Positions 547 through 10,060 of a DNA stretch of 10,942 nucleotides are shown in pieces. Origin of the DNA: Candidatus Iainarchaeum sp. (GTDB lineage: Archaea > Iainarchaeota > Iainarchaeia > Iainarchaeales > DTGL01); NCBI GenBank assembly GCA_038736825.1, contig JAVYME010000036.1, forward strand, positions 1 to 10,942, given 5' to 3'. The notes under the pieces were generated by a model. That model was not told where the DNA came from, made no database searches, and saw only the letters and a program-made list of their open reading frames with translations. The stretch's first letter is position 1. Each line of letters starts with the position of its first letter. Position numbers and translations under genes: made by a program.

Positions 547-549
547 ACC

Positions 550-557
550 TATAAAAA
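550..557 (+). promoter_or_regulatory. TATA-box-like element (TATAAAAA) upstream of the crtI-family gene
   Basis: TATAAAAA lies in the 33-nt mgtE-crtI spacer. Its centre is about 26-27 nt upstream of ATG 580, and there is no Shine-Dalgarno between them. This is the geometry expected for an archaeal leaderless mRNA. Confidence 0.4.
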
Positions 558-579
558 TGCCTCTTTGCCCAATTTTTAC

Positions 580-2109
580 ATGAAATCCAAAAAAGCAATA
601 ATTGTTGGAGCGGGCCCAGGCGGTTTGGCTTGCGCAATGATTTTAGCCCACAGGGGTTTTTCAGTGACAGTTTACGAGAAAGAGGCAAGAGTGGGTGGAA
701 GGAATGCAGTGCTAAAAATTGGTCCTTACACTTTTGACACTGGCCCGACATTTTTAATGATGAAATTTATAATGGATGAAATGTTTGAAGAGGCTGGAAA
801 AGACTCTTCAAACTACCTCAAGGTGAAAGAGATAGAGCCATTGTATCACCTTGACTATGGAGACATGGAATTGTTTCCTTCAAAAGACATGGAAAAAAAC
901 ATTTTGGAGGCAAAAAAGTTTTTTCCTGGCAGTGAAAAAGGCGTTAAAGAATTCTATGAAAAGGAAAAAAAGCGCTATGAATTGTTGTTTCCATGCCTTC
1001 AAAAGGATTACTCGCATTTTTCTGCTTTTTTTTCAAAGCGCTTCATAAAGGCAATTCCAATTTTAGGCATAAACGAGTCCTTGTTTGATAATTTAAACCA
1101 TTATTTTAAGGATTTAAGGCAAAAAATGGCTTTTGCGTTTCAATCCAAATACCTTGGAATGTCGCCATGGGAGTGCCCTGCAGGTTTTACCATGATTCCT
1201 TACGTGGAAAGAAGATATGGCATATTCCATGTAATGGGCGGCTTGAACGCAATATCTGAGGCAATGGCGAGAGCAGCAAAAGAGGAGGGCGCAAAAATAA
1301 AACTGAAAACCCCAGTAAAGCAAATAATCTTTGAGGGAAGAAAAGCAGTCGGGGTTTTGCTTGAATCAGGCAAAAAGGATTTTGCAGACGAAATAATAAT
1401 AAACGCAGACTTTGGTTATGCTGCCACAAACCTTTTCCCGAAAGGGTTTTTGAAAAAATATTCTCCAGAAAAAATTGCAAAAAAGAAATACTCTTGCTCC
1501 ACTTTCATGATATACTTGGGAGTGGACAAAAAATATTCCTTGCCACACCACAACATTTACTTTTCAAAAGACTATGAAGGCAACGTGAAAGACATATTTG
1601 AAACAAAAAAACTCTCTGAAGAGCCGTCCTTTTACCTTCAAAACCCTTCAGCAATAGATGAATCGCTTGCACCAAAAAACCATTCTGCAATCTATGTGCT
1701 TGTTCCGGTTCCAAACAACACTTCCAAAATAAACTGGGAAAAAGAAAAGAAGGCTTTCAGGAACAAGGTACTAAATTTAGTGGCAAAAAGAACAAAAATA
1801 AAAGACATAGAAAAGCACATAAAGGCTGAACATATTATCACTCCACTTGACTGGGAGAAAAAATACAATGTTTATTATGGTGCCACATTCAATTTAGCCC
1901 ACAATCTTTCCCAAATGCTTTATTTCCGTCCAAGAAACAAGTTTGAGGAAGCTGAAAACTGTTGGCTTGTCGGAGGCGGCACTCATCCTGGAAGCGGTTT
2001 GCCGACAATATACGAGTCTGCAAGAATCACAGCAAACCTTTTATGCAAAAAGCATGGAATCAACTTCAAAGAACCTTCAAGCCTTTCAGAAAAAAGAACA
2101 GGCGGCTGA
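580..2109 (+). CDS. crtI: CrtI-family phytoene desaturase / carotenoid (FAD-dependent) oxidoreductase
   Basis: ATG 580 gives MKSKKAIIVGAGPGGLACAMILAHRGFSVTVYEKEARVGGRN (Rossmann GxGxxG at nt 604-624, followed by E-x5-GGR). It continues with GPYTFDTGPTFLMM and the C-terminal NCWLVGGGTHPGSGLPTIYESARITANLL. These are the three hallmark blocks of CrtI-type enzymes. The ORF-track TTG at 565 adds 5 residues before a canonical N-terminus, so ATG 580 is preferred. Stop is TGA 2107-2109. Subfamily (CrtI, CrtD or CrtN-like) cannot be decided by eye. Confidence 0.85.
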   Translation: MKSKKAIIVGAGPGGLACAMILAHRGFSVTVYEKEARVGGRNAVLKIGPYTFDTGPTFLMMKFIMDEMFEEAGKDSSNYLKVKEIEPLYHLDYGDMELFPSKDMEKNILEAKKFFPGSEKGVKEFYEKEKKRYELLFPCLQKDYSHFSAFFSKRFIKAIPILGINESLFDNLNHYFKDLRQKMAFAFQSKYLGMSPWECPAGFTMIPYVERRYGIFHVMGGLNAISEAMARAAKEEGAKIKLKTPVKQIIFEGRKAVGVLLESGKKDFADEIIINADFGYAATNLFPKGFLKKYSPEKIAKKKYSCSTFMIYLGVDKKYSLPHHNIYFSKDYEGNVKDIFETKKLSEEPSFYLQNPSAIDESLAPKNHSAIYVLVPVPNNTSKINWEKEKKAFRNKVLNLVAKRTKIKDIEKHIKAEHIITPLDWEKKYNVYYGATFNLAHNLSQMLYFRPRNKFEEAENCWLVGGGTHPGSGLPTIYESARITANLLCKKHGINFKEPSSLSEKRTGG

Positions 2110-2114
2110 ACTTT

Positions 2115-3025
2115 TTGCCAAAAAACACGGTTTTGCTCTTGCAATTAATTAAGCTTGGGCGCTTTCAATTTGTTTTTGGGGGCATCCTGTTATACCTCTT
2201 GGGTTGCCTTTTGGCATTGCCTGCAGGCTATGCTTTCAATCCCTTTTTATGGTTTTCTGGCTATCTAGTTTTGTTTCCAGCGCACCTTTCAGTTTCCTAC
2301 AGCAATGACTTTTTTGATTCAATTGGAGACAAGGCTGCCAAGCGAACCATTTTCTCGGGCGGAAGCGGTGTTCTCTTAGAACACCCTGAACTAAGAGAAA
2401 CAGCGAAAAGAATTGCTTTGGCATTAATAGCATTGTCTTTTCTTGCAGGAATTGCTTTCATTTTAGCATTTGATTTCAATCCATTTCTTTTGGTTTTTGT
2501 TTTAATTGGAAATTTTTGTGGCTGGTTTTATAGTGCCCCCCATTGCGCTTTTCTGAAAAAATTTATGGCAACACTGTTTTTGCCCTTACTGCTTGCGTTT
2601 TGCTTCCAAGCTTTGGCAATTTTATTGCTTCCGGTACAATCACGCCAGAAATGCTTGCATTTTCAATTCCACTGCTGTTTTATGGTTACGCTTTCACAAT
2701 TGCAGTTCAAATACCCGATATTATTGTGGACAGAAAAAACAATAAAAAAAATTTTGCACTGGTTTTAGGCGAACAAAAATCCTTTTTTGCAATTTTAGTT
2801 CTTTCAATTTCAGCCTCTCTTTCCTTTATTGCAATTCCCTTCCTTTTCAAAAACATCCCTGACTTCAATTTTTTCTTTTTATTTTCATGGATTCCGCTTG
2901 CAGTTTCTTCCTTCAATCTTTTGGCAAAAAACAAGGCCTCCCTTAAAACAATGGTTTTTGTTTCTTCAATAATGGCTTTTGCAGCAATTTGCAATGCATT
3001 CCTGTTCTGGAAATTTTTTTGGTAA
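2115..3025 (+). pseudogene. UbiA-family aromatic/isoprenoid prenyltransferase, interrupted by a 1-nt frameshift in a C6 run (true pseudogene, homopolymer assembly error, or recoding site)
   Basis: The N-terminal half is in the frame of ORF 1962-2768. It carries TM helices and the first Asp-rich motif NDFFDSIGD (nt 2304-2330). The C-terminal half is in the frame of ORF 2543-3025, with the second Asp-rich motif DIIVD (2717-2731) followed by RKNNKKNFALVLG. The two frames can only be joined at 2534-2542. Adding one C restores ...WFYSAPPLRFS..., the canonical UbiA-fold junction. The repaired length of about 300 aa is typical for the family. The start is uncertain: there is no in-frame ATG after the crtI stop, and TTG 2115 (5 nt after the stop) or TTG 2133/2139 are the candidates. 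Confidence 0.75.
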
Positions 3026-3057
3026 GCAATCTTAAAACTGGAAGAGCACTCAACTTT

Positions 3058-3915
3058 TTATTCTACAATAATCTCTAATTCAAAGGATTGCGCGCTTTTT
3101 GATGCAAAGCCCACGTCAACGTATTGACTGCCGAGTTCTTGCTTCCACTTTTCAGCATATTCAATTGGTGGATCCACAATAATAATTTTGACAGAAAAGT
3201 TCTTTTTTGGAGCATTCTTTTTTGCAAAAACCTCCACAAAAACAGCCCTAGCCCAAGCTTTATCGAATTTTGGAAAGCTTGGGCCTAACAAAAAAACAGG
3301 CTCGCTTATGTTCACTTCAAGGAATTGCTTTGCATTTTCATCAAGAAATTCTGGTTTCAACATCATTCCCTGAAATGATCTTACCCCATAACCTGAATGC
3401 AGAAAAAACACAGTCTTTTTTTTTCCTTCCTGTTGCACAAAAACAGTTTCTTTTATGGGAAAATAGCCATAGCCATAAGCAGCCCAATGCGTTGTAGACG
3501 GCTTTAACCAGTATTCAAGCCCGTTTTGCTTGAAAGAAGGATAGAATTCTGGTTGCAAATAATAATCTTTTGAAAAAAAATCATAATTCGTGTAAAGGTT
3601 TTTGTGCATTAATGAAACAATCCTGTTAAAATCAGGGGGTGGAACAGGCAATTCTTCAAATACTGCTAGCGGAATGCCGTAAGCCTTTCTTTCTTCCATA
3701 AGCCCTTCCGAATTTTGGCTGCTTTCTGGAATTATTGAAGAACTAAAACCAGGAAGCAGGTTGTTGTTGTCGCTTTCAATGCTGGTTTTTTTGAATGAAT
3801 TCAGGTTAAAAACAAAAAAGAAAACAGCCAAAACCGCAACAATAACAATTAAAATCCCAGCAATGGCTTTTTTTTCTGGCTTTTTCTTTTCCATAAAAGC
3901 AAATTTTCCAGCCAA
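3058..3915 (-). CDS. Hypothetical N-terminally membrane-anchored protein with an aromatic-rich extracytoplasmic domain; distal gene of the giant-protein operon
   Basis: TTG 3915 sits 4 nt downstream of GAGGTGA (3920-3926). An alternative ATG lies at 3894. The product has a basic N-terminus (KKKPEKK), one TM helix (AIAGILIVIVAVLAVFFFVF), and then about 235 aa rich in Tyr/Phe/Trp (HWAAYGYGYFP, FFLHSGYGVRSFQGM) with no motif I recognise. Stop is TAA 3058-3060. Confidence 0.75.
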   Translation of the reverse strand: MAGKFAFMEKKKPEKKAIAGILIVIVAVLAVFFFVFNLNSFKKTSIESDNNNLLPGFSSSIIPESSQNSEGLMEERKAYGIPLAVFEELPVPPPDFNRIVSLMHKNLYTNYDFFSKDYYLQPEFYPSFKQNGLEYWLKPSTTHWAAYGYGYFPIKETVFVQQEGKKKTVFFLHSGYGVRSFQGMMLKPEFLDENAKQFLEVNISEPVFLLGPSFPKFDKAWARAVFVEVFAKKNAPKKNFSVKIIIVDPPIEYAEKWKQELGSQYVDVGFASKSAQSFELEIIVE

Positions 3916-3919
3916 AAAA

Positions 3920-3926
3920 TCACCTC
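3920..3926 (-). promoter_or_regulatory. Shine-Dalgarno site GAGGTGA overlapping the stop codon of the giant gene
   Basis: The minus strand reads AGC-TGA-GGTGA-TTTT-TTG. The GA of the TGA stop (3925-3927) plus GGTGA form GAGGTGA, which is complementary to the 16S rRNA 3' end. It is followed by a 4-nt spacer and TTG 3915. This is a classic translational-coupling arrangement. Confidence 0.55.
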
Positions 3927-6900
3927 AGCTTGGACCACTAGTGCTTGTAACATTGCGATCTGTGCTTCCAACACTGGCTCCAATAAAATCTGCAAAAATA
4001 AAAATGTTCAAATCCTTTGAACCAGTGCTATAAACAGCAGTTCCAATGTTTTTTGGAGTAGCATCTATTTCAACACAGTCCACGTCAGTGTTTCCACTGC
4101 ACGAAGAAGCCCAGCCATTGTATGTTTTTGAAACCTTTAACTTGAGAGTGCTTGGAAGGGCTTCATTCAAGTGAAGCGAAAAATTAATATCGTTCCAGCC
4201 AGTGCTTTGATTGTCATAAACAAAAAAAGGAATGCTTGAAGTCTGGCCTTCTGGGTCCACTTTGGTTTGATCTGAAAGCCCTGACAAATCTGTTGGCTCA
4301 AAATAGCCTTTTTCGCAGGCACCACTGCCAGCACTAATTCTGCCTTTTCCTTCAGTGCAACCTGAAGAGGGCAGTGAAAGCGTGAAAGTATAATCCGCTG
4401 GCCCACTTATTGTTATATTTATGTCTGCATTGTTTGCACTAGAATAGTTCACGTCAGCACTCCAATTAGAATCAATTTTTGCTCTAATTGTATAAGTGCC
4501 AGCGGCAGTGCCAGTGACTTGGAAAACAAAATAGTTTGTGTCAGAAACATCGAGCAAATTGTCTCTCCTGAAATAAGTGCCATTTGAAACATAAAGCGGG
4601 CTTGAAGAAGAAGTGTTCATGTCAAACCATTGAGAGCAGCCATTTGAAGGATTAATGCAATACATTAGTACGACATTTGTGTCACCACAGGAATAGTTTT
4701 TGCAAGAGCCAAGCACGCTTACATCAAAAGCAGTGTTTATTGTTTTCTGTGAATTGTTTGCAGGCGAAACAATTCCAGTGTTCAAGTCACCTGCAAGCCT
4801 AATGCTTGCAGGAGCAATGAGGTTGCTGTCCCTTGTTGCTGCAGTATTCCCGTTATAGGAAAGTGTTCCCACAGCAGTGGTTGGGCTCACACCGTAAAAC
4901 GCGACCTCTGCGACTATTTTGTCTCCCCTGGTTAATGTAACAGCACTACCAGCAGCAGTCAAAAGCTTGTATGTGGGGCTTGTACCAATTTCAGTTGCCA
5001 AGGTAGTTGGAACCACAATATTCTGCTGCTTTGAGTCATTTGCATCCCAGACATAAATCGCATACCTTCCCTGCAAGTCGTCGTTAGTTGCACTTTCGTG
5101 AAGATAAGCAGTCATCCTCCAGTTCGCAGCGGAAATAGTCTGCGGCACAAGTGGAGGAGAAGTGAAAGAAGCTAGGCTGATGAAAACATTACTTCCACTA
5201 CTAAGTGATGGTGTTGAAATAGTAGTGGTCGAACTACCAGCTGTGTCAATCATTCCAAGGCCAGTCCAAGTGCTTCCGGCAAGAAAGCTGTCTCCAGAGG
5301 CAGAAGCATTAGGCATTGGCTCACTTGGAGCCCAATCAGCGGCTTGCCTAAAAAAGAAAATTGTTGTCGGGTTTGCGTCCACTGCAATCATCCAAGCCCT
5401 TGTTTCTGCAAAAAAGAAGTTTTTTCCATTTATCTCCAATGGCCCGATATTGTAAAGCCATGGCTTTTTGTCAGGAACTGAATAATAATAGTAAATTTCT
5501 GCAATTCCTTCTTCATTGAATTTAACATTTTTCCATTCAATTATTTTCTCGCTTTCGGTTTCAGAAACAGAAAAGCCTTCGCCTTCAATTTCGAATTCTT
5601 TTGGCACAAACTCTCTAATGTCAGCTGTTTTCTTTCCATCAAATGTTTTCACCTCTATTGCTACTTTGTTGGGTTGAACTGCTGGGTCGATTTTTGTGGC
5701 GGTTCGCCTTAAAACTTCAAAGGGAACAAATTTTTGGACTTCAAAGGTTGTCTTAATTTCAACATCAATATTGGGAGCAATGGCTTTCGCTAGCACTCCA
5801 TGGGTTCCCTCTTCAAAAACTTGCAGTTCGCCAACATAAATTCCACTTGAAGTTGTTTCCTTTATGGTGCCATTTATTGTGGAAATTGTTTGAGTTTGCC
5901 CGCTTGGAGTCAAAACTGCAAGGTTGACTTCTGCCCCCTGCACTCCATAGCTTTCCCTGTCGAGCACGACAACATGGAATTCAACTGTTTCACCCGGCTT
6001 ATATGTGCTTTTGACTGTATTTACTGCAATCAAGCCCCATTCAAAGGAATCCGATTGCTCTATAAACTCATTTCCGTCAAAAGCTTTAATTCTCAAAGTA
6101 TAAGTGCCAGCCTTAAAGCTTCGCAATACTGGCACGGTTATAAGGAAAACCCCTTCCTCTTTTCTTTTTATTTTTTCTGTGCTAATCGGTTTTTCTGTTC
6201 CATCCGGCATTACAAGAAATGCTTCTATTTCACTGTCAACTTTTTCGTTCAATTCGCTTGTTATTTGGAGTTCAAAGACAGGCATTTCGTTTGCCAAAAA
6301 TTTGGAGCGAGCTTTGGAGAGTGCAAAAAACTTTTTTCCAGATTTTTTTATTTTTAGCTCTGGCTCGTCCTTGTTAAAATCCTCTATATTGAAATCTGGT
6401 GGCAGTTCTGGCAAAACAATGCGCTTGGCAAAAGCAAAGGCTCTTGCACCGTTTTCCAAGGAAAGCAATGCAGTGGCGCCACTTATTTCAGAGGCTTTTT
6501 CAAAAAGCGAATTGCATTTTTTTCCAGCAAAATCCCAGTTATTGCATAAAAAAACAGTGTCAGCTTCACCAGGCACTGCGAACGAAATAAGCCCTTGTTC
6601 AAAAGAAAAACCGGGCTTTTCTGCCACAATGTTTTCAAAATAAAAGTTTTTGTCAGGACTGGGCACAGAATTTTCATCTATTTCTTCATCTATTTCAAAC
6701 AATGTTGTGTTTGAGTCAATTTTTGCTCCGTCAATTTCAATTTTTGAAAAAACAGAATCAAAAAAAGAAATTTTCAAGGCATAAGAGCCAAGCGCTATTT
6801 CAATCAATTCAGTGCCAGAGGCAACAGGGTTCTCGTTGGAATCATAAAATGTTGCTGCTGAAAAAAAATTGGATGGCTTTACAAAAACAGTTTTTTGCAT

Positions 6901-7503
6901 TGGTTCAATTGGCTTTGCAGTGCCAGGCGCCAAAGATGGAGTTGGGAAAGGGGTTTCCCCTGAATGGCTTGGGCTTATTGCTGGCGTTTCAAGGAGTGTA
7001 TCCTGTGCTTGAGTTGGAATTGCAGTCTGAATTGGGGTTTCCGGAAGAGTTGTGTCAGGCTGAAGAGGGCTTGCAGTTGGGATTTCCTCGGGCTTTTCTT
7101 CCAAGGGATTGATTATTTCTATATTGGCTTTCTTGGATTGGCAGTTTTCTTCGATGCAGGCAGTAATTGAAAAGGAATGCACTCCATTTTCAAATTGTAA
7201 AGAATTAAAATCTGATGAAAAATTGTTTTCAATTGAAAGACTGCCAAGCCTTTGCCCGTCCACTTCAAACCAAGCGCTTGTAATTTGTTCCCTTGGCTCT
7301 ATAACTGCAATAACTATTGCACTGCCTTTCACTTTTTGTGATTCCATTGGCGAAACTATTGAAACAAATAATGTTTCTTGTTGAGTTTTTGCGGTTTCTT
7401 TTAAGATTTCATCTTCTTGAAAGAACGCGGGGGAAAGAAAAAAAGTTGTTGGAATAATAAAAACCAAGCAAAGCCAGAAAAAAAAGCCACTTTCTTTCAG
7501 CAT
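3925..7503 (-). CDS. Giant (~1190 aa) secreted surface protein: mosaic of Ig-like/beta-sandwich domains with a Pro/Thr linker and a Cys- and N-glycosylation-sequon-rich C-terminal third; no C-terminal membrane anchor
   Basis: The ORF is uninterrupted from 3925 to 7515. ATG 7503 (MLKESGFFFWLCLVFIIPTTFFLSPAFF...) is preferred over the TTGs at 7515/7512. After the hydrophobic N-terminal signal comes an Ig-like domain (VSIVSP...GSAIVIAVIEP...AWFEVDGQRLG...NGVHSFSITA). A Pro/Thr/Glu linker with ETP repeats follows (nt ~6898-7107). Beta-sandwich modules follow, each with the pattern x-P-[DS]-G-x...G-x-Y (e.g. YKPGETVEFHVVVLD...VLTPSGQ...SGIYVGEL, nt ~5746-6033). The C-terminal ~290 aa (3928-4803) contain many Cys and, by my manual count, at least 12 N-x-S/T sequons in the last ~460 aa. 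The protein ends ...DRNVTSTSGPS with no TM segment. Stop is TGA 3925-3927. Confidence 0.85.
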   Translation of the reverse strand: MLKESGFFFWLCLVFIIPTTFFLSPAFFQEDEILKETAKTQQETLFVSIVSPMESQKVKGSAIVIAVIEPREQITSAWFEVDGQRLGSLSIENNFSSDFNSLQFENGVHSFSITACIEENCQSKKANIEIINPLEEKPEEIPTASPLQPDTTLPETPIQTAIPTQAQDTLLETPAISPSHSGETPFPTPSLAPGTAKPIEPMQKTVFVKPSNFFSAATFYDSNENPVASGTELIEIALGSYALKISFFDSVFSKIEIDGAKIDSNTTLFEIDEEIDENSVPSPDKNFYFENIVAEKPGFSFEQGLISFAVPGEADTVFLCNNWDFAGKKCNSLFEKASEISGATALLSLENGARAFAFAKRIVLPELPPDFNIEDFNKDEPELKIKKSGKKFFALSKARSKFLANEMPVFELQITSELNEKVDSEIEAFLVMPDGTEKPISTEKIKRKEEGVFLITVPVLRSFKAGTYTLRIKAFDGNEFIEQSDSFEWGLIAVNTVKSTYKPGETVEFHVVVLDRESYGVQGAEVNLAVLTPSGQTQTISTINGTIKETTSSGIYVGELQVFEEGTHGVLAKAIAPNIDVEIKTTFEVQKFVPFEVLRRTATKIDPAVQPNKVAIEVKTFDGKKTADIREFVPKEFEIEGEGFSVSETESEKIIEWKNVKFNEEGIAEIYYYYSVPDKKPWLYNIGPLEINGKNFFFAETRAWMIAVDANPTTIFFFRQAADWAPSEPMPNASASGDSFLAGSTWTGLGMIDTAGSSTTTISTPSLSSGSNVFISLASFTSPPLVPQTISAANWRMTAYLHESATNDDLQGRYAIYVWDANDSKQQNIVVPTTLATEIGTSPTYKLLTAAGSAVTLTRGDKIVAEVAFYGVSPTTAVGTLSYNGNTAATRDSNLIAPASIRLAGDLNTGIVSPANNSQKTINTAFDVSVLGSCKNYSCGDTNVVLMYCINPSNGCSQWFDMNTSSSSPLYVSNGTYFRRDNLLDVSDTNYFVFQVTGTAAGTYTIRAKIDSNWSADVNYSSANNADINITISGPADYTFTLSLPSSGCTEGKGRISAGSGACEKGYFEPTDLSGLSDQTKVDPEGQTSSIPFFVYDNQSTGWNDINFSLHLNEALPSTLKLKVSKTYNGWASSCSGNTDVDCVEIDATPKNIGTAVYSTGSKDLNIFIFADFIGASVGSTDRNVTSTSGPS

Positions 7504-7528
7504 AAGAACCAACAACCACTGGTTGAAA

Positions 7529-7536
7529 AAAATAAA
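7529..7536 (-). promoter_or_regulatory. TATA-like element (TTTATTTT on the minus strand) upstream of the giant gene
   Basis: Its centre is about 29-30 nt upstream of ATG 7503 on the minus strand, and no convincing Shine-Dalgarno lies between them. This is compatible with a leaderless or very short-leader transcript. Confidence 0.3.
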
Positions 7537-7545
7537 TGCGAAAAG

Positions 7546-7553
7546 TTTATAAA
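7546..7553. promoter_or_regulatory. Palindromic TATA-like box TTTATAAA in the divergent intergenic region
   Basis: The 8-mer is a perfect palindrome and so could serve either divergent transcription unit. It lies ~46 nt from ATG 7503 (minus strand) and ~44 nt from ATG 7594 or ~65 nt from GTG 7615 (plus strand). Confidence 0.3.
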
Positions 7554-7564
7554 TAACAAGAGCA

Positions 7565-7572
7565 TTATATTT
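7565..7572 (+). promoter_or_regulatory. TATA-like element TTATATTT upstream of the small secreted ORF
   Basis: Its centre is about 25-26 nt upstream of ATG 7594, which is leaderless-type geometry. Confidence 0.3.
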
Positions 7573-7593
7573 TGTGCCTTTCTTTAAATTTGA

Positions 7594-7902
7594 ATGGGAA
7601 AAAGGGTGATATACGTGAATTTTAAGTTTTGGGTAATAGTTTTAATTTTAATAAATTTTTGCATAGTGGTGTTTGCTGACACTCAAACCACCACTTTGAG
7701 TTGGGTTATTCCCGCAAACGTTGTGCACACTCTCTCTTATGGTGGCAATTGTTCAAATTCCGCAATGTATTTTATTGAAACAAATTCTCCAGAGGATCCA
7801 GACATTGACGGAAATGGCGCAAAAATAATTCCATATGATGCAGCAAGCAGTGGCATTTCAATAGACAGGCCACATTTTAGGCTAATCATAACAGTAAACT
7901 AA
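7594..7902 (+). CDS. Small secreted protein (95-102 aa precursor) with signal peptide; mature part resembles the start of the giant protein's C-terminal domain
   Basis: ATG 7594 gives MGKRVIYVNFKFWVIVLILINFCIVVFA/DTQ. The alternative GTG 7615 is preceded by GGGTGAT (7604-7610) plus a 4-nt spacer and gives MNFKFWVIVLILINFCIVVFA/DTQ, a textbook Sec signal. The mature ~73 aa are Thr/Ser/Asn/Asp-rich. Stop is TAA 7900-7902. There is no alternative long ORF here on either strand. Confidence 0.6.
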   Translation: MGKRVIYVNFKFWVIVLILINFCIVVFADTQTTTLSWVIPANVVHTLSYGGNCSNSAMYFIETNSPEDPDIDGNGAKIIPYDAASSGISIDRPHFRLIITVN

Positions 7903-7930
7903 ACTGCCTGTGAGCCCTATCTAAACCAAA

Positions 7931-7944
7931 TTTTTAGACTTTTT
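7931..7944 (+). terminator. Two oligo-T tracts (T5 at 7931-7935 and 7940-7944) downstream of the small ORF
   Basis: Archaeal RNA polymerase terminates at oligo-T tracts. These are the first T5 runs after the stop at 7902, and they precede the next TATA-like box (7957-7964). Confidence 0.3.
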
Positions 7945-7956
7945 CTTAAAAAGATT

Positions 7957-7964
7957 TTTAAATA
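7957..7964 (+). promoter_or_regulatory. TATA-like element TTTAAATA upstream of the 685-aa membrane protein gene
   Basis: Its centre is about 23-24 nt upstream of GTG 7984. Only a weak AGG lies between them. This is again leaderless-type geometry. Confidence 0.35.
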
Positions 7965-7983
7965 ATGGAAGCATAATAGGTTT

Positions 7984-10041
7984 GTGCTAGCAAAAAAACT
8001 GCCTTTGGTTTTGCTCTTTCTGTTGTTTTTCCATTTACTGGTTTTTGCGGATTTTAAGGGAACAGACTTAAAATGGCTTTCTGCAAGCGAAAACCTTTAT
8101 GAAATAAATATAACCGCAGATCATACGCCTGAATTGAACCAAGTTGTTGAAATAAAAGTGTCATTTTCAAAGCAAGGGGTTTTGCTTTCCGGCGACATAA
8201 ATGGCACAATCACGAAACCGGATGCTTCAACTGAGAGTTTCAATTTTGTACAAACTGGGGACGGCAATCACCAGTATAATTTTTTGTTTGAACAAAATGG
8301 GGCTTACACTCTTGACATAACCGCAGTTGATGAAAATGGCTTTCTTGCAAGGAAAAGAGATTATTTTTATGTTGGAGCATACAATATCAACAGGTCTATA
8401 ATAAGCCAGCAAGATTTTCTTCCAAACTCTATTGTCACCATTATGGTTTATGCAAGCGTTAATCCACCGCTGGTGCGTGCTAGGGGAACAATTTCAATAA
8501 ATTATCCCAATGGAAACGCTCTTGTGTCAAATGCAAATCTCACTGAATCTACAACGCCAGGATATTACTCTTACAGTTTCACAGCGCCAAACATTCTTGG
8601 AACATATACTTACAACATAACAATGGTTTCTGGAGCGAATAGTGTTTCAAAAACAGGCAGTATAAACATCAATGTGTTGGGAGCCATTTGCGGCAATGGT
8701 TTTTGTGAAACAAATGAAACCTGCACAAACTGTGAAAGCGATTGCGGTGCGTGTACAATGCCAACTCCAATACAACAACCTGGCGGGGGCAGTGGAGGCG
8801 GAACAGGCGGTGGAGGTAGTTTTGCAAAACCCACTCCAACGCCAGAAACCTTTGAAAAACCAAAGATTAGAGCAGAAGGCATTTCTGTAAAGCCATTTGA
8901 ACTTGGAAGCCCTGCAATAATTAGCGGCAAAATCATAAATTCTTCAGACAAAAAAGCCACAGTACTAGTTTCAGTCATAATTCAATACGAAAACACACTG
9001 GAATATGTGGATGAAAGGGTTTACCTTGACATATTGCCTTCTTCCTCTCAAGACTTTTCAATGCTTTTGCCTTGGACTCCAAAAATTGCTGGCTCGCATG
9101 TAATGACTTTAACATTGTATTCAATTGACAAAACCGTTAAATTTGACGAACAAGTAAAAGTTTTTGAATTGCCAGGCGAAATGCGTTACGATCTAGAAAT
9201 CAAGTGCATTACTCAAAACACGGCAGCAGGACTGCCAGCCTATTTTGAAATATTTGCCTACAATTTAGGACAATACTATTCCGACATAGGCCTTTACTGG
9301 TTTATAGAGGACAGTGAAGGAAAAGTCCAGTTTTCTTCTTCAACGCCGTTTGCACTCAAGCCTGACGAAAAGGCAACCAAAGCGTTTATTGCCACAATTC
9401 CGCAAAACGCAAAATCAGGAATTTACACTGCAAGGGCAAAACTTTTACACCTTGAAAACGGCAATCAACCGGAAAGAGAAGCGATTTGCACTTTTAATGT
9501 TTTAAGCCAGCCAAACTATTATGCTTTAGAGGTTTTTGACTTAAACAAAAGGCTTGAAGAAGCGCAAAGCGCGGTTGAAGAACTAAAATTAAAAGGAAAA
9601 AATGTTTTAAGCATTGAATTGAAAATCTCTCAAGCAAGGCTGGCTCTTTTTGAAATAGAAACATTGATTGGCAACCGCAATTTTGAAGGAATTGAACTCA
9701 AATTAATAGATTTGTTCAAAAAAATAAACGATATTGAAAAAGAAATAGAACAAATCAAAAAAGAACCAGTTTTTGATTTCACAATTGTTTTGTTTTTGAT
9801 TTATGGCTTGATACTTTTGCTTTTAGGGTTCTTTTTTTATAGGCATATGCGACTGGCTGCTGAAAGAGAGGAAAAGTTTTCAAAAATTTTGGAAGCAAAC
9901 ATTCGCTCTGCAAGAAAGGCAAAAAGCCTTATTCCAATCGGCAAATCCTTATGGCATGAACCACAACACAAGCGGTTAATGCGAAAAATTCACGAAACCA
10001 GTCATGCCCATAAGCACGCTTTAAGCCATCATAAAAGTTAA
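7984..10041 (+). CDS. Type-I membrane surface protein: signal peptide, Ig-like domains, Cys-rich module, Gly/Pro linker, two CARDB-like domains, coiled-coil stalk, C-terminal TM helix, His-rich cytoplasmic tail
   Basis: GTG 7984 gives MLAKKLPLVLLFLLFFHLLVFA/DFKG, a signal peptide. Two beta-sandwich modules follow, with the P-[DN]-G...G-x-Y pattern (TKPDAST...NGAYTLDITAVD; NYPNGNA...PGYYSYSFTAPNILGTYTYNITM). Next come CGNGFCETNETCTNCESDCGAC (8689-8754), the linker PTPIQQPGGGSGGGTGGGGSFAKPTPTPE (8755-8865), and two CARDB-like repeats (~8872-9168 and ~9181-9504). A heptad-rich segment, LNKRLEEAQSAVEELKLKGK...KKINDIEKEIEQIKKE, spans ~9520-9765. The TM helix FDFTIVLFLIYGLILLLLGFFFY spans 9772-9840, followed by a basic tail ending HETSHAHKHALSHHKS. 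Stop is TAA 10039-10041. Confidence 0.85.
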   Translation: MLAKKLPLVLLFLLFFHLLVFADFKGTDLKWLSASENLYEINITADHTPELNQVVEIKVSFSKQGVLLSGDINGTITKPDASTESFNFVQTGDGNHQYNFLFEQNGAYTLDITAVDENGFLARKRDYFYVGAYNINRSIISQQDFLPNSIVTIMVYASVNPPLVRARGTISINYPNGNALVSNANLTESTTPGYYSYSFTAPNILGTYTYNITMVSGANSVSKTGSININVLGAICGNGFCETNETCTNCESDCGACTMPTPIQQPGGGSGGGTGGGGSFAKPTPTPETFEKPKIRAEGISVKPFELGSPAIISGKIINSSDKKATVLVSVIIQYENTLEYVDERVYLDILPSSSQDFSMLLPWTPKIAGSHVMTLTLYSIDKTVKFDEQVKVFELPGEMRYDLEIKCITQNTAAGLPAYFEIFAYNLGQYYSDIGLYWFIEDSEGKVQFSSSTPFALKPDEKATKAFIATIPQNAKSGIYTARAKLLHLENGNQPEREAICTFNVLSQPNYYALEVFDLNKRLEEAQSAVEELKLKGKNVLSIELKISQARLALFEIETLIGNRNFEGIELKLIDLFKKINDIEKEIEQIKKEPVFDFTIVLFLIYGLILLLLGFFFYRHMRLAAEREEKFSKILEANIRSARKAKSLIPIGKSLWHEPQHKRLMRKIHETSHAHKHALSHHKS

Positions 10042-10060
10042 ACTTTAAATCTAAAACCGC

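Follow-up and report, generated by a model that had tools for sequence, protein, structure and literature searches.

The window analysed here is the whole of a 10,942-nucleotide contig (JAVYME010000036.1) assigned to Candidatus Iainarchaeum sp., and it carries on its forward strand an intact crtI-family gene directly followed by a gene for a UbiA-family prenyltransferase whose reading frame is broken. The continuous ORF of ~300 aa expected of a UbiA enzyme is absent, and two ORFs, 1962..2768 and 2543..3025, occupy its place. The features of the locus are as follows:

580..2109, + strand: crtI-family gene (phytoene/carotenoid desaturase), intact, 509 aa, MEM0360729.1, matching TIGR02734 with 435 bits against a cut-off of 238
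2106..2109, + strand: CTGA at the crtI/ubiA junction, where relatives have ATGA
2115..2540, + strand: N-terminal half of the UbiA-family prenyltransferase, zero frame, start uncertain
2304..2330, + strand: first Asp-rich motif, NDFFDSIGD (NDxxDxxxD), in the N-terminal half; homologues have SYSNDFFD
2536..2541, + strand: C6 homopolymer and site of the 1-nt frame break, from direct reading and gapless homologue alignment
2540..3025, + strand: C-terminal half of the same enzyme, -1 frame (CCA TTG CGC ... TGG TAA)
2541..2768, + strand: out-of-frame tail of the upstream ORF, HCAFLKKFMATLF...HWF and then TAG 2766-2768
2717..2731, + strand: second Asp-rich motif, DIIVD (DxxxD), in the C-terminal half; homologues have QIPDIEADR

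Read directly in the sequence, the break lies at a run of six C's (CCCCCC, 2536-2541). The upstream frame reads GGC TGG TTT TAT AGT GCC CCC CAT, which encodes GWFYSAPH, and then continues through 75 codons of unrelated sequence rich in Cys, His, Gln and Leu to TAG 2766-2768; this tail shows no homology and arises where translation continues beyond the break. A stop, TAG 2531-2533, closes off the downstream frame, which from 2534 reads C-P-P-L-R-F-S-E-K-I-Y-G..., so that beyond the stop the sequence CPPLRFSEKIYGN... runs by way of DIIVD to TAA 3023-3025. The position of the run, the two frames and the flanking stops had been reported in an initial annotation of this DNA, and all of these coordinates were verified. 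The same annotation had proposed that one extra C restores the gene, which proved correct: the addition yields a protein of 303 aa, counted from TTG 2115, whose junction reads GWFYSAPPLRFSEKIYGN. The alternative repair, removal of two C's, produces SAPLRF, a sequence seen in no homologue; the parsimonious intact state is C7 (GCC CCC CCA, Ala-Pro-Pro). The C6 run is the longest G/C homopolymer and the sole G/C run of at least six in the 10.9 kb. It is also the only C6 or G6 run of the window, with one observed against 2.4 expected from shuffles, and by itself it is not unusual. Its coincidence with the frame break, on the other hand, is real and far beyond chance.

The identity of the gene was supported by profile and homology searches with the repaired protein. 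It matched the Pfam family PF01040 from end to end in one stretch that crosses the break (profile 6-249 of 250) with 61.5 bits against a cut-off of 34.2, upholding the earlier assignment to the UbiA family. The best homologue had E = 1.8e-103 at 99% coverage, and homologues of ~300 aa from metagenomes and MAGs were 51-60% identical across 95-99% of the repaired protein. In an alignment of 27 homologues, the SAPPLRF junction was gapless against GW[YF]YSAPP[LM]RFS[HQ][KR]LYGN, and the chlorophyll synthase in the PDB, with the matching sequence YSAPPLKLKQ, was likewise gapless at this point. Both of the Asp-rich motifs by which the UbiA superfamily is recognised are present and intact. NCBIfam gave no equivalog at cut-off for the repaired protein, and its generic "prenyltransferase" matches were sub-threshold. 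The best NCBIfam match was NF004749, for MenA (1,4-dihydroxy-2-naphthoate polyprenyltransferase), a member of the same superfamily and the name that JGI gives to the homologues; we rejected this assignment, as the score was 47.3 bits against a cut-off of 277 and the gene context is one of carotenoid rather than menaquinone synthesis. A plasmid tblastn search for annotated elongase relatives returned three weak matches of ~29-33% identity, labelled "prenyltransferase" or unannotated.

The crtI gene ends with its TGA stop at 2107-2109, directly upstream of ubiA. The same pair, a 509-aa desaturase with a 300-aa UbiA protein, was also found in a Diapherotrites MAG (GCA_038886995.1; locus L027, crtI at 657-2186) and in an Altiarchaeota MAG (GCA_016933855.1; locus L029, crtI at 4475-6004). 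UbiA and CrtI identities were 51% and 80% between the window and L027, 56% and 74% between the window and L029, and 47% and 69% between L027 and L029, the latter being a comparison of two intact genes. By these values the conservation of crtI between phyla is unusually high, a sign that the crtI-ubiA pair may have spread horizontally, while the membrane enzyme UbiA would seem to evolve much faster than its partner. A further connection comes from three JGI metagenome proteins of 519-520 aa (P0002, P0004 and P0009), in which an N-terminal lycopene-cyclase domain, PF18916 in two repeats, is joined to this UbiA subfamily. Such fusions may be taken as a Rosetta-stone link to the elongation and cyclisation of C45/C50 carotenoids in uncultured lineages. 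Because of the adjacency to crtI, as in the two other archaeal MAGs, and the fusion of homologues to lycopene-cyclase domains, the enzyme is probably a lycopene-elongase-like carotenoid prenyltransferase.

In Corynebacterium glutamicum, CrtEb adjoins the C50 cyclase CrtYe/Yf, a pairing that is paralleled by the cyclase-domain fusions among the close homologues of the window gene. For haloarchaea, PMC9258230, citing Yang et al. 2015, describes a bacterioruberin cluster of the form crtD-lyeJ(-cruF). The window gene resembles CrtEb and LyeJ of Haloarcula japonica (crtD-lyeJ-cruF) in its UbiA fold, in both Asp-rich motifs and in its location directly behind a CrtI/CrtD-family desaturase. It differs from them in that its frame is broken and that no CruF or cyclase accompanies it in the window. 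A Pfam search of the window found no CruF-type hydratase, cyclase, crtB or crtE. To our knowledge, carotenoid synthesis is uncharacterised in DPANN archaea. The presence of the crtI and UbiA pair in Diapherotrites, Altiarchaeota and other uncultured lineages hints at C45/C50-type elongation beyond haloarchaea and actinobacteria, a hint that concerns the gene family and is independent of the frameshift.

The start of the broken gene also differs from that of its relatives. In both syntenic loci the crtI stop and the ubiA start overlap in ATGA (L027 2183-2186; L029 6001-6004), and in the window CTG 2106 occupies the position of their ATG. No ATG occurs from 2043 up to the LGRFQF motif at 2154, and the nearest conventional start is TTG 2115, whereas most of the intact homologues examined begin with ATG, usually ~9-20 codons ahead of LGRFQF. 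The CTGA may reflect the loss of an ATG start, and thus a second lesion, or TTG 2115 may simply serve as the start codon; GTG starts are also used on this contig, so the presence of CTG in place of ATG may have no bearing.

Comparison with the nearest relative contig (L030, Diapherotrites GCA_043809265.1), in which Sua5 is 80% and MgtE 73% identical to the window proteins, suggests that the pair lies in a variable part of the genome. In that contig Sua5 and MgtE are adjacent and convergent (3494-5562), and in the window they are separated by 9.5 kb (547-10060) that hold crtI, ubiA, a 285-aa protein, a 1196-aa MG2-domain protein, a 102-aa protein and a 685-aa protein. Because the nearest relative contig is without the whole 9.5-kb crtI-ubiA block, the ubiA gene is regarded as accessory, and the block looks like a variable island of accessory pigment and giant surface-protein genes. 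Its four other genes, at 3058-3915 (-), 3925-7515 (-), 7594-7902 (+) and 7984-10041 (+), could hardly be assigned to families: the only match of the 1196-aa protein is to one MG2 (alpha-2-macroglobulin-like) domain, and in the 685-aa protein a Gly-rich linker is accompanied by a C-terminal region like a coiled coil and by a TM segment at the C-terminus. All four are probably DPANN cell-surface proteins. We rejected two further candidate frame breaks in the window. MgtE and Sua5 are not truncated by frameshifts, as both run off the contig ends in frame, and the 102-aa and 685-aa proteins, though in the same frame, are not one broken gene, as each has its own signal-peptide-like N-terminus and is a separate CDS at NCBI.

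At the junction itself, the comparison covered the loci where the motif could be located (n = 19). Every one of these relatives is in frame across it, with SAPP written in varied codons, and a C7 run occurs in only one, L010 (GCCCCCCCA). The initial annotation had pointed to conservation of the tract and of the break among orthologues as informative; the break was conserved in 0 of the 19 and the C7 run in 1. Two homologous loci in JGI metagenomes are interrupted elsewhere. In L011 (~306-308), TGA replaces the conserved Trp codon directly before YYSAPP, and in L013 (~1115-1125), an extra A in a short A run (tcgaaaaccc) shifts the frame after GDRISK. Breaks at such other sites would be the pattern expected of random lesions or errors and not of a conserved recoding site. 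For a comparison of the C run itself we searched for a near-identical locus, and genome contigs yielded a relative of 60% at best, metagenome contigs 24 loci that were all at or below 66%, and viral contigs no exact 32-mer match. Nor did the contig index contain exact matches to the proteins CrtI and Sua5 or to the fragment of 160 aa. In these collections, then, neither a second assembly of the strain nor a C7 allele came to light.

Sequence conservation on either side of the break bears on the age of the lesion. The ratio of C-terminal to N-terminal identity to homologues was 0.86 for the window gene, within the range of 0.76-0.93 shown by intact proteins in the alignment of 27, and neither relaxed constraint in the downstream half nor faster divergence relative to crtI was seen. 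We therefore rejected an old pseudogene: the ratio is that of intact genes, and the divergence is like that of the intact-intact pair. As both halves look fully constrained, the lesion is either very recent or absent from the DNA, an artefact of the assembly.

The explanation that we prefer, with about an even chance of being correct, is that the DNA of the sampled Diapherotrites population has lost one C from an ancestral C7 tract, with no programmed mechanism behind the loss. GCC CCC CCA would thereby become GCC CCC CA, and the deletion would split an otherwise intact ~300-aa UbiA-fold prenyltransferase in an operon-like pair with a crtI/crtD-family desaturase. Ribosomes from the normal start would then enter the 75 out-of-frame codons and stop at TAG 2766-2768. 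Because the product would keep the first Asp-rich motif and be without the second, the allele would be null or nearly so, and because nothing else in the gene has decayed, the lesion would be evolutionarily very recent and may be polymorphic in the population. It is also quite conceivable, at somewhat short of an even chance, that the gene is intact in the organism, with a C7 run, and that the consensus undercalled the longest G/C homopolymer of the contig by one base. The break falls exactly in the only G/C run of at least six, the place on the contig where an error is most likely; apart from the break the gene is pristine, with both halves conserved as in intact homologues, and its partner crtI is intact. 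However, 66 of the 67 intragenic homopolymer runs of at least six keep the frame, including 28 A/T runs of 7-9 (up to T9), so a general homopolymer problem in the assembly is not indicated. One broken run in 67 would fit a per-run error rate of 1-2%. All other genes in the window are intact. The length of the contig, 10.9 kb, suggests that it was assembled from short reads, and consensus indels at a 7-mer are uncommon in assemblies of that type; the substitution of CTGA for ATGA is unlike the changes caused by homopolymer errors; this substitution and the accessory status of the gene slightly favour a real lesion. We consider a genuine recent deletion at least as likely as an error. The initial annotation had ranked a sequencing or assembly error first, a preference that the statistics of the window do not support; its set of candidate explanations was the right one, with the difference that the primacy of error is not established and that recoding, its third option, is disfavoured by the tests described below. 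Whether a deletion or an assembly error, the event is of an ordinary kind, a frameshift at a homopolymer; the gene affected is accessory, encodes a carotenoid-cluster prenyltransferase and belongs to a DPANN archaeon that is uncultured.

A break that is programmed is disfavoured. In principle, C6 DNA could still yield a full-length enzyme, through a -1 slip of the P-site tRNA-Pro from CCC 2538-2540 to CCC 2537-2539 or through an RNA polymerase that adds one C; both events would give exactly ...SAPPLRF..., and the downstream half is fully conserved. Frameshifting by -1 does exist in Archaea, in fucA1 of Sulfolobus solfataricus (PMC1616953, PMC8211752), where, as here, the 0 and -1 ORFs meet at a homopolymer-containing site and the run of the full-length relatives is different by a single nucleotide (PMC8211752). 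The fucA1 site has an A-AAA-AAT heptamer, flanking rare codons and a putative stem-loop, and its DNA is 100% identical among Sulfolobales (PMC8211752), whereas the window site is without a true heptamer, rare codons, a stem-loop or conservation. Its zero-frame heptamer, C-CCC-CAT (2537-2543), does not conform to the X-XXY-YYZ rule for -1 frameshifting as quoted in PMC8211752, and since the tRNA-His in the A site has no way to re-pair after a -1 shift, only the lone slip of the P-site tRNA-Pro would be possible. The CAT codon after the site is not rare (24 CAT against 20 CAC). A stimulatory structure would be expected 5-9 nt downstream, but the downstream 99 nt have an MFE of -15.6 kcal/mol, against a mean of -17.6 for shuffled sequences (z = +0.68), and a stretch of 101 nt across the site is likewise folded no more stably than its shuffles (z = +0.41). 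No Rfam frameshift element was found at the site and no SD-like element upstream of it. The well-known shift of tRNA-Pro on CCC-N is +1, and a +1 shift here meets TGA after four codons. Efficient transcriptional slippage needs a run of ~8-9, and the C6 run is below that length. Together with the absence of the break from all 19 relatives, these results make recoding highly improbable. If the C6 were functional through low-level -1 recoding, this would be the second cellular archaeal gene known to be so expressed and the first in DPANN, and recoding on C6 would tune carotenoid elongation.

The C run could also be a contingency tract, in which frequent slipped-strand mispairing toggles the carotenoid prenyltransferase between on (C7) and off (C6) among the cells of the population. 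The run is the longest of its kind in an AT-rich contig (38% GC), lies within an accessory gene and would need only one repeat unit to pass from one state to the other. Contingency loci with high switching rates usually have tracts of 8 or more, longer than the six or seven C's here; the tract is also not conserved among relatives, which have mixed Ala/Pro codons, the window holds no other G/C tracts, and we know of no phase-variable tract system in DPANN archaea. We regard such a switch as very unlikely, if slightly less so than recoding. Still less credible, and the least so of the explanations considered, is a functional split enzyme whose two parts, TM1-4 with motif 1 and TM5-9 with motif 2, are made as separate chains that come together in the membrane. 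Split genes have been described in some DPANN archaea, each half keeps a catalytic motif, and TTG 2543, from which NCBI calls the 160-aa CDS, lies directly behind the break. Yet the upstream ORF has a 75-codon nonsense tail that overlaps the second ORF, no purine-rich ribosome-binding sequence precedes TTG 2543 (tatagtgccccccaTTG), and none of the 19 homologous loci compared at this junction is split there. Coupling by termination and reinitiation is impossible because the upstream stop lies 224 nt downstream of TTG 2543. An archaeal precedent for an unprogrammed single-base indel is the Pyrococcus furiosus chitinase, split into PF1233 and PF1234 by a one-nucleotide insertion that is read as a genuine mutation (PMC3575233). 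As in the window, an archaeal enzyme gene appears as two annotated ORFs through a single-base indel relative to intact relatives; the chitinase break differs in being verified in a cultured strain and in having a phenotype.

The main relevance of the break is to annotation hygiene. The NCBI proteins of the contig span MEM0360728-MEM0360736 (locus tags QXK06_053xx), with exact protein matches for MEM0360728 (MgtE), 729 (phytoene desaturase family, 509 aa), 731, 734, 735 and 736; the Sua5 fragment at the right-hand end of the window is likewise 100% identical to an NCBI protein of this contig. Exact look-ups of five variants of the N-terminal fragment and five of the repaired full-length protein in a collection of 15 billion proteins gave no match. 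MEM0360731.1 is present in the protein collection and nevertheless did not appear among the best 120 matches of the repaired-protein search despite 100% identity over 160 residues, presumably a quirk of the word-index candidate filter. This entry (2543-3025, 160 aa), annotated as a separate CDS for a "UbiA family prenyltransferase", is really the C-terminal half of one gene, and the missing number 730 suggests that the N-terminal half is another CDS. The record would better show the two as one frameshifted pseudogene, or as one repaired gene should reads carry C7.
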